Assembly: GCA_028687915.1 (NCBI GenBank)
Contig: JAQTZF010000001.1
Coordinates: 546,634-610,633, forward strand
From: Candidatus Daviesbacteria bacterium
GTDB lineage: Bacteria; Patescibacteriota; Microgenomatia; Daviesbacterales; UBA10151
Direction: 5' to 3'
Length of the DNA stretch: 64,000 nt
In this document: one piece after another, positions 9,812-56,584 of the stretch
Layout of the letters: every line of letters starts with the position of its first letter
Position numbering within the stretch: the stretch's first letter is position 1
Made by a program: the position numbers and the translations under genes
The notes under the pieces: generated by a model
What the model saw: only the letters and a program-made list of their open reading frames with translations
Databases searched by the model: none
What the model was told of the DNA's origin: nothing

Positions 9812-11722
9812 ATGAATATTACTAATTTAAATAAAAAACTTAATACCCTAAAACGCGCAGATGCTTCAAAAAGATCCAAAAAGGGTTGGAAATCAAGATT
9901 AATAAAATCTCTAGTTATTTTGGGAATTTTATTTCTAATTGTTTATCTGCCAGCCAGAAATATTTATTCTTCAGCAAAAAAAGCTGTTATTGGATTAAAT
10001 CAGATAAATGCAGGTATGAAAGCAGAGAATCTGCAGGATATTAGAGCTGGAGTAGATACTACTAAGGCTTCTATAGATAGTATTAGTTTTTCATTAAATT
10101 TCTATTTTTACCTTAGAATTATTCCTTTCGTAGGAGGATATTATGGTGATATTAAACATTTTGCTGAGGCAGCAAGCGATGAAATGCAAGCTGCTCAAAT
10201 AATTATTAAGGAGCTAGAGCCATATAAAAATGAACTAGGTTTTACAGGTCAATCCACAGCTGGTCAGGACAGGATTGCACAAGTGGTGAAGGTATTGGAT
10301 AAAACCTTGCCTGCAATTGATAAATTTGAACCATACATGAAAAAAGCCCGTAATGAAGTAAGTAGTATTGATGTAAATAAATATCCAGAGACTATTGGTG
10401 GGAGAATGTTAAAAAATAGGATTGATGAAGCTAAAAACTTTATTGTGGGAGCTCATATAGCTGTAACAGATGCCAGACCGGTACTTGAAGTTGCACCAAG
10501 TGTATTAGGGGAACCCAGCGCTAAAACTTATCTTATGTTGTTTCAAAATGATAAAGAGCTTCGAGCAACCGGAGGTTTTTTGACTGCCTATACTTTCTTA
10601 AAATTAGACCGGGGACATTTAACTACCACCCAATCTGATGATATTTATAGATTGGATGAAAGACTATTAAAAGTTTGTTTAAATAAGGTTTGTCCCTTGA
10701 CTCCTCCGGCACCAATTGTGAGATATTTACCAGAAGTAACAGGAAAACCCCGTACTGCATGGTCAATGAGGGATTCCAATCTTTCTCCTGATTTGCCAAC
10801 TTCAGTGAAAGACTTTGAAAGAATGTATGCAATGGTAGATAGCGCAAATGCATACAACGGAATTATTACTATTGATACTAATGTGGTAGAAGAGCTAATT
10901 AAAATTACAGGACCCATAGAGGTAAATGGTACAAAATATAGTGCAGAAATTGATAAAAGGTGTAATTGCGCTAATGTTATCTATGAATTAGAACATTATG
11001 CTGAGGTTGCTTCAAAAGGAGAAGCAGATAGGAAGGAAGTTGTTGGAACACTGATGCAAAGTATTTTGGCAAAACTTTTGGGATCTGGTATTGATAAAAT
11101 ACCAACCTTTATAAATGTGGGAGTAAAGTTAGCAAATGATAAACATATCATGATGTATATGGATGATCAAAAAGCCCAACAAGCTTTTGCCCAACTTAAC
11201 TGGACTGGTGAAATTAAAAAGGATGTTTTGGGTGATTATCTGCATATTAATGATTCTAATTTTGCCGGAGGAAAATCTAATTTATATGTGACAGAAAAAG
11301 TGACTTTAGAAATTAAAGTTAATGGAGATGGATCAGTTAAAAATAAGGTAACCATAGATTACAAAAACCCTCAGCCATTTAGTCTCTGGTTAAATGGTAT
11401 AAATCGTAGTTATGTTCGAATTTATGCCCCCAGGGGCTCTAAATTGACATATTCCAAAGGATCAGACGATCCTGTAAATGAGGTTGATGATGAGGTTTTA
11501 AACAAAACATATTTTGAAGGTTTCGTACAAGTCAGACCACAAAATTCCAGAACTTTAGTTCTAGAATATACTTTGCCATTTAAAGTTACAGATAAGAAAT
11601 ACCCTTTATTAATTCAAAAGCAGCCTGGTACAAAAGATTATCATTACACAGTTAAGATTAATGGTGTCACTAAAGCAGATCTTGATTTAAATACTGATAA
11701 AACACTTAATTTAACCTACTAA
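9812..11722 (+). CDS. Large membrane-anchored extracytoplasmic protein of unknown function
   Basis: It has one N-terminal TM helix (LVILGILFLIVYLPA) followed by an exported domain of about 600 aa. No motif I can name was recognised. It lies at the end of the glycan cluster. The ATG at 9812 is preferred over the GTG at 9791. Confidence 0.4.
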   Translation: MNITNLNKKLNTLKRADASKRSKKGWKSRLIKSLVILGILFLIVYLPARNIYSSAKKAVIGLNQINAGMKAENLQDIRAGVDTTKASIDSISFSLNFYFYLRIIPFVGGYYGDIKHFAEAASDEMQAAQIIIKELEPYKNELGFTGQSTAGQDRIAQVVKVLDKTLPAIDKFEPYMKKARNEVSSIDVNKYPETIGGRMLKNRIDEAKNFIVGAHIAVTDARPVLEVAPSVLGEPSAKTYLMLFQNDKELRATGGFLTAYTFLKLDRGHLTTTQSDDIYRLDERLLKVCLNKVCPLTPPAPIVRYLPEVTGKPRTAWSMRDSNLSPDLPTSVKDFERMYAMVDSANAYNGIITIDTNVVEELIKITGPIEVNGTKYSAEIDKRCNCANVIYELEHYAEVASKGEADRKEVVGTLMQSILAKLLGSGIDKIPTFINVGVKLANDKHIMMYMDDQKAQQAFAQLNWTGEIKKDVLGDYLHINDSNFAGGKSNLYVTEKVTLEIKVNGDGSVKNKVTIDYKNPQPFSLWLNGINRSYVRIYAPRGSKLTYSKGSDDPVNEVDDEVLNKTYFEGFVQVRPQNSRTLVLEYTLPFKVTDKKYPLLIQKQPGTKDYHYTVKINGVTKADLDLNTDKTLNLTY

Positions 11723-43849: not shown

Positions 43850-43863
43850 ATTAATTGTTACTC

Positions 43864-43883
43864 TCGGAGCCAGCGGTGAGAAT
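43864..43883 (-). repeat. 20-nt direct repeat of the 3' end of tRNA-Thr (TCGGAGCCAGCGGTGAGAAT), 68 nt downstream of the tRNA
   Basis: The 20-mer is identical at 43864-43883 and at 43952-43971. The second copy overlaps the tRNA-Thr T-loop and acceptor 3' end. Confidence 0.8.
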
Positions 43884-43955
43884 AAGATAGGCTTGTGCTG
43901 CGCAAGCTTAGCACACTTCCTTCTTTATCACACCTTGTCTCCTCATTGCTTTCGG

Positions 43956-44027
43956 AGCCAGCGGTGAGAATTGAACTCACGACCCATCCCTTACGAAGGG
44001 AGCGCTCTACCGCTGAGCTACGCTGGC
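43956..44027 (-). tRNA. tRNA-Thr (anticodon CGU)
   Basis: Reverse-complemented, it folds as acceptor GCCAGCG/CGCTGGC, D-arm GCTC-AGCGGTA-GAGC, anticodon loop TTCGTAA, T-arm GTGAG-TTCAATT-CTCAC, discriminator U. Confidence 0.75.
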
Positions 44028-51977: not shown

Positions 51978-52072
51978 CAAATACTAACCGCTTTTATGTT
52001 TATTTAGCCAAACCACTATTTCGAGCCTAAAATCAATAAAAGGGACTATTCTGGGGACACTGTCCCGTCTGG

Positions 52073-52143
52073 AGCGGGGTACGAGAATCGGACTCGCTTC
52101 TCTACCTTGGGAAGGTAGCATACTACCGGTGTACTAACCCCGC
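52073..52143 (-). tRNA. tRNA-Gly (anticodon CCC)
   Basis: Reverse-complemented, it folds as GCGGGGT-TA-GTAC-ACCGGTA-GTAT-G-CTACC-TTCCCAA-GGTAG-AGAA-GCGAG-TCCGATT-CTCGT-ACCCCGC-U. The U73 discriminator is typical of Gly. C55 in the T-loop is unusual. Confidence 0.65.
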
Positions 52144-52352
52144 ACGAATAATTTCTTGAACCCATTCCCGCCTTTATAAGACTTTATTTGTTTTTCTCTT
52201 CTGCAACATTCAAGATATTCATTATACTCTTCCGTGTAGACTACCTCCCATATTCCTTTTTGTCTTGTAGATTTAGTATGCCCTCTATTATGTTCAGAAA
52301 GGCGCCTTACTAAAAACATCTGACTGGCTTCTCTATCTTGGGAAGGCGGCAT
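52134..52352 (-). pseudogene. Decayed GIY-YIG (UPF0213/YhbQ-like) nuclease gene lacking the N-terminal GIY motif; its 3' end overlaps tRNA-Gly
   Basis: FLVRRLSEHNRGHTKSTRQKGIWEVVYTEEYNEYLECCRREKQIKSY aligns to the C-terminal two-thirds of the intact copy at 54231-54494, and about 23 N-terminal residues (the GIY-YIG block) are missing. The first 9 codons of the track ORF are read from the degenerate tRNA copy. The stop TAG is tRNA-Gly positions 8-10. Confidence 0.6.
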
Positions 52353-52375
52353 ACTACCGGTGTACTAATCCCGCG
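52328..52375 (-). repeat. Partial diverged duplicate of tRNA-Gly(CCC) 5' portion (acceptor 5' strand, D-arm, anticodon loop) upstream of the GIY-YIG remnant
   Basis: The reverse complement GCGGGATTAGTACACCGGTAGTATGCCGCCTTCCCAAGATAGAGAAGCC matches tRNA-Gly positions 1-48 with a disrupted anticodon stem. Confidence 0.7.
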
Positions 52376-53711: not shown

Positions 53712-54113
53712 AATTTTTCTTTTATCAATAGGCAATCCTAATCGTTTGCTAGTTTCTTGCAGCTCTGTTTCTAACGATTCAGCATCTAGCTCTATTACAT
53801 CTGCGTAGAAGTCTTCTCCTCCACCGGACATTTGATCAAAAGAAAATAAAGAAAAACTCAAAATAGTTCCTGCAGAGCCTGACTCCCTTCTCAAAATTTC
53901 AATTTGACGGTAAATAGAAGCACCTATTTCAGGAGTTTCCCCTTTTATCACTACTTGTCTGCTAGTGTAACCTTGTTCAACTAATTCCTGTAGGGTTTTA
54001 GAGGCTAAACGATCTATTTTTAAATACATGTTATTATCCAAAAAATCAATCTCTTCGTCTATCTCTATTTTAAATTGTTCAAATTCATATGGATCAAAAT
54101 CCGGCTGACTCAT
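53691..54113 (-). CDS. Hypothetical acidic protein
   Basis: It is a 140-aa ORF with no recognisable motif. It lies immediately downstream, in tRNA orientation, of tRNA-Asp. Confidence 0.3.
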   Translation of the reverse strand: MSQPDFDPYEFEQFKIEIDEEIDFLDNNMYLKIDRLASKTLQELVEQGYTSRQVVIKGETPEIGASIYRQIEILRRESGSAGTILSFSLFSFDQMSGGGEDFYADVIELDAESLETELQETSKRLGLPIDKRKILPIVIR

Positions 54114-54167
54114 TAGTAAATTATATCTAAATATTATAGGTTATTCAAGAAGTAAAAACCTATCTAG

Positions 54168-54240
54168 CGGGACCGACGGGATTCGAACCCGCAACCTCTT
54201 CCGTGACAGGGAAGCGCTCTAACCATTGAGCTACGGCCCC
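54168..54240 (-). tRNA. tRNA-Asp (anticodon GUC)
   Basis: Reverse-complemented, it folds as GGGGCCG-TA-GCTC-AATGGTTA-GAGC-G-CTTCC-CTGTCAC-GGAAG-AGGTT-GCGGG-TTCGAAT-CCCGT-CGGTCCC-G. The G73 discriminator is typical of Asp. Confidence 0.8.
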
Positions 54241-54494
54241 AATAAAATGATTCCTTCTCGAATCATCCTTTCAAGTATATTCTTGTTTTTAAACTTCTTC
54301 AGTTTTAATTCAATCTTTCTGGCTTCTATCAAAGAAGAATATTCTTGATGTAATACCAGTTTTACAGGTCTTATAAACTTAAGGCTTTTAGTCTTACCAT
54401 TATTATGCTCCGCTAACCTTCGTTTAAGATCGTTTGTTGATCCAATATAGTACCGACTATTTACTTCTGATTGCACTATATAAACATAAGCCAT
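54231..54494 (-). CDS. GIY-YIG family nuclease (UPF0213/YhbQ-like, URI domain), intact
   Basis: MAYVYIVQSEVNSRYYIGSTNDLKRRLAEHNNG...HQEY.S...AR.IELKLKKFKN carries the GIY and YIG blocks, the Arg, and the Glu/Asn of the URI catalytic domain. The last codons LLGP-stop are encoded by tRNA-Asp positions 1-10. Confidence 0.8.
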   Translation of the reverse strand: MAYVYIVQSEVNSRYYIGSTNDLKRRLAEHNNGKTKSLKFIRPVKLVLHQEYSSLIEARKIELKLKKFKNKNILERMIREGIILLGP

Positions 54495-54553
54495 AATAAG
54501 GCAACCTGTCCGATGTCACATCGGACCGCTCTAACCATTGAGCTACGGCCCCA
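54495..54553 (-). repeat. Partial duplicate of tRNA-Asp 5' portion (positions 1-26, substituted hairpin, variable loop) immediately upstream of the GIY-YIG start codon
   Basis: The reverse complement is GGGGCCGTAGCTCAATGGTTAGAGCG-GTCCGATGTGACATCGGAC-AGGTTGC. It is identical to tRNA-Asp over positions 1-26 and over AGGTTGC. The anticodon arm is replaced by a perfect 6-bp hairpin. Confidence 0.8.
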
Positions 54554-54625
54554 AGACTGTGATATTGTATCAGAGCCTGGCTACACGGTCAATTAAATAC
54601 CTTCTATGGTAATATAAAGTTAACA

Positions 54626-54790
54626 TGTCTTTTGCTTTTTATTTATTGTTAACCTGTATCATTTCTGCAATTATAACGGTTGTTGGTTTTGTGAAAAATA
54701 TCACAATACTGAAGCTAATAGGAACTGTTTTTCTTCTAACTGGCATTTCTTTAGCTATTGCACTAGCTTTCTCCGTGAGAACTATGTAAA
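54626..54790 (+). CDS. Small hydrophobic peptide (54 aa, 2 TM), not in the ORF track
   Basis: The ORF ATG...TAA encodes MSFAFYLLLTCIISAIITVVGFVKNITILKLIGTVFLLTGISLAIALAFSVRTM. This was read directly from the sequence. Confidence 0.25.
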
Positions 54791-54841
54791 CAATTTTAGT
54801 AAATAGGTAATATTAGGTGGGTTTGTGATATATTATTTTTA

Positions 54842-56584
54842 ATGGATTTTAGTAATGCTAAAGTTGCGCACATGCTTCGTGATGTAGCCACGGCCTATAC
54901 CCTTAAAAAAGCTAATAATTTTCAGATTAGAGCTTATGAAAATGCAGCTGATACTATTGAACGTTTAACCAGTGAATTAAAGGATTTATGGCAGGATCAG
55001 CAATTAGATAATGTACCAGGAATTGGAGAAAGCCTAAAGGCTTATTTAGATGAGCTATTTAGGACAGGAGAAGTAAAGCATTGGATAGATATAAAAAAGG
55101 ATATCCCAGAGTCTGTTTTTAGTTTTCTGGATATTCCTGGAGTAGGCCCTCAGACGGCCTTAAAGCTATCTTCTGCTGGTGTAGTAGATTTAGTTGATCT
55201 GGAGAACAAGTTGGAAAACAGAGAACTTCAAAAAGCAGATTTTTCACAAAAGTTATTAGATAAGCTAAAAATTGGACTAAAACAATCACAATCCTTAAAA
55301 ACAGGCAGAATGCTACTTCCTTATGCCTTTATTCAGGCTCAGAAAATTCTAGATTATTTAAAACAAGATAATAGTGTTCTAAAAGCAGATGTTTTAGGAA
55401 GCCTTAGGAGGATGGTAGCAACTGTAGGGGATTTAGATTTTGCAATATCTACAAATAATCCAGAAAAGGTTATGAAACATATCTTAAATATGCCTGGAAT
55501 AAAAGAAGTTATAGAAAAAGGTGAAACAAAAGCTGCGATTTTTATATCAGAAGGTATTCATGTTGATTTTTTAATCGCAAAGCCGGAAGTATATGGTGCT
55601 TTGTTACAGCATTTTACAGGTTCAAAAAGCCATAATATTCACCTTAGGTCATATGCAGAGTCAAAAGGATTTTCATTATCTGAGTATGGTCTTTTAAAAG
55701 TAAAAAATAAGGAATTAATTAATTGTGAAACAGAAGAAGAAGTTTATAGTAATTTAGGAATGCAAACACCTATTCCTGAGATAAGAGAAAATACAGGTGA
55801 AATAGAGATGGCAATAAAGCATAGTTTACCTACTTTTATTAAGCCTGAAGATATAAAAGGGGATTTACACCTACATTCAAATTTTAATATTGAGCCTTCC
55901 CACGACCTTGGGGTAAGTACAATGCATCAATTAATAGAAAAAGGTCAGTCTCTTGGTTATGAATATATTGGGGCCTCAGAACATCAACCATCTAAGGCTA
56001 ATCATAGTCCAGAACAGGTAATTGAACTCATAAATAATAAGAAAAAAGTGGTTGAACAACTTAATTACTCACAGAAAAGTGTTCGAGTACTAAATTTACT
56101 CGAATTAGACATTATGACTGATGGATTAGTTTCTGTGCCTGAAGAAGGGCTTAAACTTTTAGATTTTGCTTTGGCAGGAGTGCATTCTTCTCATCACCAG
56201 CCTAAGGAAGAAATGACAAAGCGGTTGATTAAGGCTTTAGAGAATCCATATATTAAAGTTATTACCCATCCTACAGGAAGGCTTTTAAATGAAAGGGAAG
56301 CATCAGATGCTGATTGGGATTTAGTTTTTAAAACTGCTGCTACGCATAAAAAAGCTTTAGAAATTAGTGCTTACCCAAATAGACTAGACCTTTCTGATTA
56401 TTTAGTACGGAGGGCAAAAGAATATGGAGTTAAGTTTGTTATTAGTACAGATTCACATGAGGTTTCACAAATGGATTTAATGTTTTTTGGAATATCCGTT
56501 GGCAGACGTGGGTGGCTAACAAAGGAAGATGTAGTTAATGCCTGGGATTGGCCTAAATTTGCAAAATGGTTCAATTTGGATTAA
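54842..56584 (+). CDS. polX: DNA polymerase X family protein with C-terminal PHP phosphoesterase domain (PolX)
   Basis: It has HhH motifs (NVPGIGESLKAYLDEL, IPGVGPQTALKL). The Pol beta nucleotidyltransferase region is GSLRRMVATVGDLDFAI. The PHP motifs are GDLHLHSNFN and ISTDSHE. Confidence 0.8.
   Translation: MDFSNAKVAHMLRDVATAYTLKKANNFQIRAYENAADTIERLTSELKDLWQDQQLDNVPGIGESLKAYLDELFRTGEVKHWIDIKKDIPESVFSFLDIPGVGPQTALKLSSAGVVDLVDLENKLENRELQKADFSQKLLDKLKIGLKQSQSLKTGRMLLPYAFIQAQKILDYLKQDNSVLKADVLGSLRRMVATVGDLDFAISTNNPEKVMKHILNMPGIKEVIEKGETKAAIFISEGIHVDFLIAKPEVYGALLQHFTGSKSHNIHLRSYAESKGFSLSEYGLLKVKNKELINCETEEEVYSNLGMQTPIPEIRENTGEIEMAIKHSLPTFIKPEDIKGDLHLHSNFNIEPSHDLGVSTMHQLIEKGQSLGYEYIGASEHQPSKANHSPEQVIELINNKKKVVEQLNYSQKSVRVLNLLELDIMTDGLVSVPEEGLKLLDFALAGVHSSHHQPKEEMTKRLIKALENPYIKVITHPTGRLLNEREASDADWDLVFKTAATHKKALEISAYPNRLDLSDYLVRRAKEYGVKFVISTDSHEVSQMDLMFFGISVGRRGWLTKEDVVNAWDWPKFAKWFNLD

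Follow-up and report, generated by a model that had tools for sequence, protein, structure and literature searches.

Why does an intact nuclease gene stand between a complete tRNA-Asp gene and a partial copy of the same tRNA gene? This arrangement was found on the minus strand of a 64,000-nucleotide stretch (hereafter, the window) of the contig JAQTZF010000001.1 from Candidatus Daviesbacteria bacterium, a member of the Patescibacteriota. As listed in Table 1, the order of the parts is the 5′ portion of a disabled tRNA copy, a hairpin, the heptamer AGGTTGC, a short linker, an open reading frame (ORF) for a GIY-YIG protein, and a full tRNA-Asp. In the following, T denotes an intact tRNA, T* a disabled spare tRNA copy, HP the hairpin, and R the resident tRNA, while loci from the comparative searches carry L numbers. 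The answer that I regard as reasonably probable is a free-standing homing-type selfish element that lives in the tRNA transcription units of Patescibacteria and whose sole gene encodes a bare GIY-YIG nuclease domain.

Anatomy of the element at tRNA-Asp

Table 1. Parts of the Asp-site element and of the decayed Gly-site element, with their positions in the window. L201 is the related locus described in the next section.
Feature	Position	Strand	Basis and remarks
Promoter-like site, TTGACC-17 nt-(TG)TACAAT	54564..54592	-	Promoter scan
T*5′, GGGGCCGTAGCTCAATGGTTAGAGCG; tRNA-Asp positions 1-26 (acceptor 5′ strand, D-arm)	54527..54552	-	26/26 identity to the intact tRNA
HP, GTCCGATGTGACATCGGAC = GTCCGATG-TGA-CATCGGAC, 19 nt	54508..54526	-	Folding; exact swap for the 17-nt anticodon arm, positions 27-43
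AGGTTGC; tRNA positions 44-50 (variable loop and first two T-stem bases)	54501..54507	-	Identity; tRNA homology stops here
Linker CTTATT, 6 nt, before the start codon	54495..54500	-	Read from the sequence
GIY-YIG ORF, 87 aa, ATG at 54494	54231..54494	-	ORF list and Pfam
T, intact tRNA-Asp(GTC)	54167..54240	-	ARAGORN; Rfam tRNA, 73.9 bits
Resident-type tRNA-Gly 5′ fragment, 58 nt, positions 1 to ~58	52317..52374	-	Anticodon loop retained, stem mutated, without HP
GIY-YIG remnant, N-terminally truncated	52134..52313	-	tblastn; frame ends at TAG = tRNA-Gly U8-A9-G10
Intact tRNA-Gly(CCC)	52070..52143	-	ARAGORN; allele differs from the displaced fragment and from L201

An earlier note on this DNA, made from the letters alone, had described the partial copy as identical to tRNA-Asp over positions 1 to 26, replaced by a hairpin in the anticodon arm, and identical again up to the first T-stem bases. 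All of this holds. The 26-mer T*5′ matches tRNA-Asp with E=9e-10 (blastn within the window). The HP folds into an 8-bp stem with a 3-nt loop, to which the 6-bp stem and 7-nt loop described earlier are equivalent. Its folding energy as DNA (dG -7.9, z=-4.0) was equalled by none of the shuffled sequences (0/200), and a pattern search found it exactly once in the window. The start codon, previously placed 5 nt after the partial copy, follows the 6-nt linker of Table 1. The expectation of one full and one partial tRNA in a covariance-model search was borne out for the full tRNA, but the partial copy reached just 16.9 bits (E=2, Rfam), a value to be expected where the T-arm and the acceptor 3′ strand are missing. 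Given its identity to tRNA-Asp and the empty-site comparison described below, a chance origin of the partial copy is irrelevant.

The last 10 nt of the ORF overlap the full tRNA-Asp, and the TAG stop codon of the ORF is U8-A9-G10 of the tRNA. The non-ORF sequence of the Asp-site insertion amounts to only ~58 nt. The site listed first in Table 1 would be the promoter-like site of the resident tRNA-Asp gene, which now lies upstream of T*, the ORF and T. Since this promoter-like site has been kept and no terminator-like site was found at the Asp locus in the promoter scan analysis, it is likely that the resident tRNA promoter serves the ORF and tRNA-Asp in one transcript.

In the predicted RNA fold of window positions 54470-54560 (minus strand), the acceptor strand GGCCGUA of T*5′ pairs with the start-codon region UAUGGCU, occluding the AUG. 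This pairing was considered as an acceptor-stem mimic and rejected; its z is only -1.35 in the minimum-free-energy fold of the window, and by eye the pairing is absent in L003 and not evident elsewhere.

Empty sites in a relative and a second element at tRNA-Gly

Is the Asp-site element an insertion? The locus L201 belongs to a Microgenomates relative, in which the ortholog of the window's neighbouring 140-aa protein is 84% identical. It is syntenic with the window (PolX, a small ORF, tRNA-Asp, the 140-aa gene, HIT, LysM, tRNA-Gly) and has one uninterrupted tRNA-Asp that is identical to the intact copy of the window in 74/74 nt, in agreement with the earlier statement that a functional tRNA was kept. 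The flank before the L201 tRNA-Asp, including the promoter-like site, is the flank that abuts the partial copy in the window. Relative to L201, 312 bp are extra in the window; formally they fall between tRNA positions 26 and 27, with boundaries that are ambiguous within the repeats. At the orthologous place of the Gly site, L201 has a single tRNA-Gly. Presence/absence polymorphism was thus observed at two places, as L201 offers syntenic empty sites at both tRNA-Asp and tRNA-Gly. Judged from this comparison, the Asp-site element is an insertion in a tRNA gene, as the earlier note had supposed.

The second element of the window, at tRNA-Gly, is decayed. Its GIY-YIG remnant shows 42% identity to the Asp-site ORF over 36 aa (tblastn, match 52313-52206). 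The displaced fragment and the L201 tRNA-Gly share resident-type states, namely the acceptor strand GCGGGAT (A6) and the T-stem strand GCCAG. The intact tRNA-Gly of the window differs from them on both strands of two stems, so that pairing is kept: its acceptor stem reads GCGGGGT/ACCCCGC and its T stem GCGAG/CTCGT. These alleles are consistent with co-conversion of a donor tRNA allele alongside the nuclease gene. Separately, about 30 extra nt (gacgggacagtgtccccagaatagtccc, itself a small hairpin) follow the tRNA-Gly of the window, and L201 lacks them.

Linkage of the family to tRNA genes

Is this common in other genomes? The window ORF has 38 homologs at E<=1e-3, and those with names are Patescibacteria GIY-YIG proteins. 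The locus search was seeded by a 12-sequence subset, the full 38-sequence alignment being too diverse. The genome scan yielded 80 loci, nearly all of them in metagenome-assembled genomes (MAGs) of Patescibacteria, with a few from Omnitrophota, Elusimicrobia, KSB1 and Auribacterota; some bin labels are doubtful. A number of loci with Patescibacteria-type architecture (L012, L013, L021, L032-L036, L042, L049, L054, L056, L061, L062, L067, L068, L075) come from co-assembly bins labelled 'uncultured Gammaproteobacteria', 'Planctomycetales' and so on, and such labels may reflect mis-binning or mis-classification.

Linkage was counted at the 79 evaluable loci. A same-strand tRNA lies within 130 nt of the ORF in 74/79, against a background of 0.105 tRNA per kb at more than 1 kb away, and an opposite-strand tRNA was found within 200 nt at only two. 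The stop codon is exactly tRNA positions 8-10 in 25 loci, a tRNA starts within 30 nt after the stop in 24, and in 16 the ATG comes no more than 20 nt after the end of a full tRNA. TAG is the stop codon in 54, and most loci have flanking direct tRNA repeats. Twelve tRNA identities are represented (Val 40, Ala 29, Asp 18, Ile 9, Thr 7, Gly 5, Pro 4, Arg 3, His 2, Ser 2, Asn 1, Phe 1). This linkage, 74 of 79 ORFs by a same-strand tRNA of one of 12 identities, agrees with the earlier proposal that a minimal selfish GIY-YIG element has tRNA genes as its targets. When 121 unique ORFs were placed on a neighbour-joining tree, 39 changes of tRNA identity were counted, versus ~71 (minimum 62) in shuffles; therefore, the ORF lineages are partly tRNA-specific yet switch repeatedly. 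The window ORF falls in an all-Asp clade with the same layout.

A viral origin was ruled against, as both the HP pattern and the ORF family are absent from the viral contigs searched. GenBank phages gave only three weak matches, to homing endonuclease genes (HEGs) of Bacillus phages.

Could the locus result from ordinary tandem tRNA duplication, by slippage or unequal crossing-over, around a resident housekeeping nuclease gene of the UPF0213/YhbQ type, with the partial copy decaying? The protein does belong to a widespread standalone UPF0213-like group, and tandem repeats recombine readily. However, the same hairpin sequence occurs in unrelated lineages with different tRNAs (see below), the ORF is tRNA-linked in 74/79 loci, a syntenic relative has an empty site, and the window has a second copy at another tRNA. 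These comparative data effectively refute tandem duplication, which I find hardly credible.

The hairpin as a conserved module

The HP stands in place of positions 27-43 of the spare tRNA at every Asp locus and at most others, with the core CCGATG-N(2-3)-CATCGG. On both sides of it, the D-arm and variable-loop sequence matches the local tRNA. Variants of the HP keep the pairing (ACG/CGT, ATA/TAT, AAAG/CTTT). In a set of 44 distinct hairpins from ORF-seeded loci, 95.2% of the HP cells are paired, versus just 26-49% in slid registers. The two outer pairs covary (GC 15, UA 12, CG 11, AU 3; at the next position, CG 20, UA 20), while the sequence of the six inner pairs never varies. There are 52 double-sided changes, compared with 18.1 ± 5.7 in shuffled sets, of which 0/500 reach the observed value. 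The centre of the HP is 2 nt in 68/104 and 3 nt in 20/104. These patterns indicate that the HP is under selection both for pairing and for its core sequence. It is the sole conserved non-coding part of the element. What had been taken for a scar, the rewritten anticodon arm, is a conserved and covarying module of the family.

The HP looks like the anticodon arm of a Val tRNA; this arm reads CCCCG-ATGACAT-CGGGG in the functional tRNA-Val(GAC) of L061, and its stem is GTCCG/CGGAC in the tRNA-Val(CAC) of L063. Two other ideas about the HP were dropped. On inspection, its central 2-3 bases echo the local anticodon in a few Thr, Ile and Val cases, and mostly not in Ala, Gly and Asp cases. Hpy188I-like TCNGA sites exist in the GTCCGA type only; the CCCCGA and TCCCGA types fail, and the sites were judged coincidental.

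Does the HP occur apart from the ORF? In an ORF-independent test, metagenomes were searched for GTCCGATG-N2-3-CATCGGACAGGT in a tRNA context, which gave at least 120 loci. Among the 120 HP-seeded matches listed, 57 have a same-strand GIY-YIG ORF nearby. Another 49 lack the ORF and have a full tRNA immediately beside the HP, and the remaining 14 show neither, 10 of them lying at contig ends. The ORF-less sites take two forms. One consists of T, a 7-17-nt spacer, the D-arm 3′ strand, HP and positions 44-76, and the other of positions 1-26, HP, positions 44 to ~58, a spacer and T. No ORF debris was seen in the ORF-less HP sites of these HP-seeded loci.

Some T* genes are full length (L010, L087, L090, L098, L108, L039). 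With one or two extra central bases, a full-length T* is called 'tRNA-???' with a 4-base anticodon by ARAGORN; the anticodons gaac, gtcc, gggc and taca were called in L010, L087, L090, L098, L108, L115/L141/L150 and L039. Is T* then a functional tRNA-like RNA, with the GIY-YIG protein as a host-beneficial partner, in a conserved operon rather than a mobile element? It might be the processing or punctuation signal by which the ORF mRNA is released; it might also be a regulatory RNA, or a tRNA whose anticodon loop is expanded. Selection on hairpin pairing, the full-length copies called as tRNAs with 4-base anticodons, and the likely co-transcription with the tRNA would all suit such roles. However, most T* copies are variably truncated and miss half of the cloverleaf, and the 'loop' is not open but forms a stem that leaves 1-3 bases unpaired. 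The ORF is decayed or absent beside T* in 49 of the 120 HP-seeded matches listed. Presence/absence polymorphism between relatives, the 12 tRNA identities and the tandem arrays also argue against an operon. The GU and CA mismatch counts in the HP are similar and so uninformative for RNA-level versus DNA-level selection; that is, there is no GU-versus-CA asymmetry that would indicate selection on RNA. A functional T* seems very improbable to me.

As a side observation, the D-loop of T* often has extra small GC-rich palindromic insertions (e.g., cctgcctgtcggcagacagggcaggcaggg) or nested CCGA...TCGG hairpins (L164, L138, L128, L181, L121, L017, L006, L016). Such pseudo-tRNAs seem to attract other miniature hairpin elements or to be invaded again and again.

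Architecture across loci

What does a complete locus look like? In a census of all loci, an HP upstream of the ORF or tRNA always comes with a complete tRNA 5′ part, and a downstream HP always comes with a complete 3′ part. The full layout is R5′-HP-{ORF + intact T, in either order}-HP-R3′. A clean two-sided Asp example is L130, and further loci with this layout are L016, L021, L017, L038, L156 and L157. The two flanking fragments pair with each other as a single acceptor stem. This stem is that of T in 7/12 two-sided loci; L157 and L083 have a different allele from that of T, as do L017, L021 and L016 when inspected by eye. The endpoint of the upstream spare copy varies among loci, from position ~50 to ~58 or at full length. 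Tandem arrays were found in L028, L055, L123, L046 and L032.

The earlier note had proposed a mirror image of 3′-end tRNA integration, in which an element of ~330 bp (the insertion is 312 bp by comparison with L201) carrying a tRNA 5′ portion integrated in the T-arm, regenerated a functional tRNA, which would be a chimera, and left the original 5′ part as a scar. As a description of the anatomy in the window, the mirror image stands; the upstream copy stops matching the tRNA after position 50, the tRNA downstream is complete, and an empty site exists. As a mechanism it is not supported, since no recombinase is present and the sole ORF encodes a nuclease domain. An insertion in the T-arm carrying just a 5′ portion is also no general rule. 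Besides the varying upstream endpoints, there are many loci in which a 3′ half lies downstream as the spare copy, or in which spare copies flank both sides, and the hairpin of the supposed scar is conserved and covaries. At the Gly site, the 3′ stem strands of the tRNA co-vary with its own 5′ strands and are not of the resident type, so that the tRNA there is a complete different allele rather than a chimera of a 5′ and a 3′ portion. I consider T-arm integration decidedly unlikely.

The two-sided loci bear on another possibility, a cut-and-paste or cassette exchange from HP to HP. The nuclease, as a dimer or a structure-specific enzyme, would cut the centre of the palindrome, and the ORF with its tRNA would be excised and then insert or recombine at another pseudo-tRNA that bears an HP, full-length T* genes being empty landing pads. 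In two-sided loci, the HPs do bracket an ORF-tRNA cassette, and full-length T* genes do occur, in the six loci named above. The invariant arms with a variable 2-3-nt centre are compatible with the 2-nt 3′ overhangs of a GIY-YIG enzyme (PMC2330249), and the fold of the protein is Slx1-like, i.e., of a structure-specific type. However, the duplication does not stop at the HP; it continues into the D-arm and the variable loop with a sequence that agrees with the local tRNA, which is what homologous recombination gives. The empty site of L201 is a plain tRNA without HP, hence there was no pre-existing pad at that site, and the first entry of an HP into a new tRNA type is unaccounted for. HP-to-HP exchange is, in my view, unlikely.

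A protein with a catalytic domain only

The Pfam GIY-YIG profile (PF01541) matches residues 1-71 of the 87-aa ORF with 60.2 bits (cut-off 22.6, E=2.5e-16), which confirms the earlier reading of the ORF as an intact GIY-YIG gene. The GIY and YIG motifs are present as VYIV...YYIGST. Among the 38 homologs, Y16, I17, G18, S19, T20, R26, H30, A58, E62 and K66 are invariant. The residues of catalytic type are thus intact; Y16, R26, H30 and E62 belong to the invariant set, and Y5 is found in at least 90% of the homologs. The AlphaFold2 (AF2) model, with a pLDDT of 87.6, has the elements E-E-H-H-E-H-H, in line with the beta-beta-alpha-alpha-beta-alpha fold of the superfamily; it is a bare GIY-YIG core plus a short C-terminal helix.

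Among PDB sequences, phmmer placed two UPF0213 proteins nearest, 1YWL with E=1.2e-4 and 1ZG2 with E=8e-4; the match covers residues 3-72 and is weak but specific. The nearest folds (Foldseek) are the nuclease domain of Slx1, with 30-33% identity and a root-mean-square deviation of ~2 Å, and again UPF0213; the catalytic domains of I-TevI and UvrC are more distant. Slx1 is a structure-specific endonuclease for branched DNA. The match concerns its nuclease domain only, 70 of the ~250-300 Slx1 residues, and no RING/zinc-finger domain of the Slx1 type was found, as the protein stops at residue 87. Curated HEG families (TIGR01453, PHROG) match only residues 1-39, TIGR01453 with 27 bits, below its cut-off of 56. 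The protein appears to be a catalytic-domain-only GIY-YIG nuclease of the Slx1/UPF0213-like kind, with a putative activity and a putative target that are discussed below.

Many homologs end with G-P, G-L, G-A or G-V, which are acceptor-stem codons. For the homologs P0003 and P0007, gene callers added ~40-50 N-terminal residues. This extension (…RAYSIAVERPDGHREG…), back-translated by eye, is probably the translation of the upstream partial tRNA and hairpin, an annotation artefact.

A possible mechanism

How might such an element spread? In the homing reading that I favour, the element sits between tandem copies of its target tRNA, and the intact T would keep the cell alive. T* would be disabled because the HP, an 8-9-bp hairpin, exactly replaces the anticodon arm (27-43). 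The resident tRNA-Asp promoter would drive T*5′(1-26)-HP-(44-50)-ORF-T as one transcript. RNase P cleaves tRNA precursors at position +1. With the stop codon of the ORF embedded in T, the maturation of T by RNase P would cut the stop away and leave a non-stop mRNA, which may keep the nuclease level low as a built-in limiter.

The nuclease would break DNA at or near the tRNA gene, by analogy with the phage T4 enzyme SegB. Repair by recombination from the occupied allele, with the tRNA and its flanks as homology, would copy the ORF together with the neighbouring tRNA (co-conversion). Such break-and-repair at a tRNA could account for ORFs that abut tRNA ends, duplicated segments, co-converted alleles, arrays and relics. 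Later recombination between the direct tRNA repeats would produce type A (T*5′-ORF-T, as in the window) and type B (T-ORF-T*3′), and the same recombination would produce tandem arrays, both ORF-less T/T* relics, and a clean empty single tRNA. The relics would be free of ORF remnants because they would arise when, in a two-sided form, homologous recombination between direct repeats deletes what lies between them. The HP may have two roles. It may keep the spare tRNA copy non-decoding, and it may serve as a cis site, as a hairpin/cruciform or a palindrome, that the Slx1-like nuclease binds or cuts. Given the selection on pairing and core and the Slx1-like fold, a cis site of the nuclease would be the most economical reading of the HP.

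Several points weigh against homing. No DNA-binding or other domain beyond GIY-YIG was found in the 87-aa protein, which leaves site recognition unexplained. A target wholly inside the tRNA would persist in T, so that the avoidance of self-cleavage is unexplained, a problem shared by SegB. Simple homing does not explain how the HP came to be placed precisely between locally matching D-arm and variable-loop sequences in 12 tRNA identities, and the HP is absent from the tRNA-Gly copy and from some other loci. The Gly-site differences possibly reflect compensatory evolution in situ instead of co-conversion, and at the Asp site T is the resident allele, hence co-conversion is invisible there. The difference between the window and L201 fits either a gain in the window or a precise loss in L201. 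An encoded 3′ CCA, as a guide to which of T and T* is the native copy, gave mixed answers.

A bolder possibility, rather unlikely as I see it, is an autonomous tRNA-gene replacement drive of ~0.3 kb. The Slx1-like bare GIY-YIG protein would act on a self-installed HP, the resident would be killed on both broken halves, and the cassette would be the only working copy. If this is true, the host cannot lose the element's tRNA, and the HP is the recombination or cleavage site of the element. The element would then be among the smallest self-sufficient mobile elements known, with a new kind of target recognition, in which a DNA hairpin in a tRNA scaffold replaces a DNA-binding domain.

Another insert beside a tRNA gene in the window

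At positions 43860-44027 of the window (minus strand), tRNA-Thr(CGT) (44027-43954) has behind it an insert of ~88 nt, at whose end the last 19 nt of the tRNA, ttctcaccgctggctccga, occur a second time. This is a classical 3′-end att-like duplication. The insert holds an inverted repeat, gtgtgctaagcttgcgcagcac, and the L201 ortholog (10956-11029) is without the insert. It may be a remnant of an integrase-type element or a small miniature inverted-repeat transposable element (MITE).

Comparison with known systems

Is the element a variant of something known? Free-standing GIY-YIG homing endonucleases linked to tRNA genes are already known from SegB. SegB of phage T4 is encoded in a tRNA cluster; its 27-bp site includes the conserved TpsiC stem-loop motif of tRNA, its cleavage leaves 2-nt 3′ overhangs, and it drives the inheritance of its own gene and of the surrounding tRNA genes (PMC2330249). 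Tandem tRNA-segB amplification relies on microhomology that the tRNA 5′ region shares with the 3′ end of segB, and SegB is statistically associated with tRNAs of many isotypes, with none preferred (PMC13096335). Like T4/T6 SegB, the window element is a free-standing GIY-YIG gene among same-strand tRNA genes, and its target is presumably tRNA gene DNA too. Tandem tRNA-nuclease units, the want of a single isotype and the puzzle of donor self-cleavage are further likenesses, and co-conversion of a neighbouring tRNA may be another. In contrast, SegB exceeds 200 aa and has DNA-binding modules, while the window protein has 87 aa, consists of the catalytic domain only, and is closer to UPF0213/Slx1. 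SegB is a phage protein, whereas the window element is chromosomal in Patescibacteria and absent from viral contigs. It also has disabled tRNA copies with a conserved HP and a tRNA-embedded stop, and nothing like the HP has been reported for SegB.

The standalone UPF0213/YhbQ proteins (1YWL, 1ZG2) and the Slx1 nuclease domain, the best PDB matches, have the same size and fold as the bare domain. UPF0213 proteins are not known to have tRNA linkage, mobility or an associated hairpin. Slx1 has a C-terminal RING/zinc domain and needs Slx4, whereas the window element has neither.

Integrase-borne islands and prophages also target tRNA genes; they supply a segment that keeps the tRNA functional, and a duplicated piece of the tRNA remains at their opposite end. 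However, they use tyrosine or serine recombinases, duplicate the tRNA 3′ part and are kilobases long, whereas the window element has no recombinase, a duplicated 5′ half or both halves, a hairpin in place of the anticodon arm, and a length of ~0.3 kb. An integrase-type element was rejected, as the only ORF of the insertion encodes the nuclease and the duplicated part is the 5′ portion. A group I intron with a GIY-YIG gene was rejected as well; a permissive Rfam scan of 53900-54900 gave no intron family match, and a complete uninterrupted tRNA is present. In fractured genes (PMC2677866), a host gene that carries a split intein is likewise broken in two, with a free-standing homing endonuclease gene between the halves. 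There, protein trans-splicing restores function, whereas at the window locus a second copy is intact and the split copy is dead.

The literature on GIY-YIG and tRNA in Patescibacteria (the candidate phyla radiation, CPR) and on anticodon-loop variants gave no description of the HP module, although it may have been published elsewhere. The family is apparently undescribed, tRNA-gene-colonising and widespread in the ultra-small Patescibacteria. The points of difference from the known kind are the host range, the minimal UPF0213/Slx1-type protein, the tRNA-embedded stop and, above all, the HP in disabled tRNA copies.

Patescibacteria have tiny genomes and are generally taken to have few tRNA genes per identity. 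It is these genes that are routinely colonised by a minimal nuclease element, which would duplicate, disable and sometimes swap them. For annotation, T* copies are called 'tRNA-???' with 4-base anticodons or pseudo-tRNAs, and ORF calls are extended across T*; full-length T* could pass for natural quadruplet-decoding tRNAs or inflate the tRNA counts of CPR MAGs. The element also offers a testable system for how catalytic-domain-only GIY-YIG/UPF0213 proteins, a very large family, find their substrates. If homing is correct, the SegB paradigm, in which homing endonucleases shape tRNA content, would extend from phages to cellular chromosomes.

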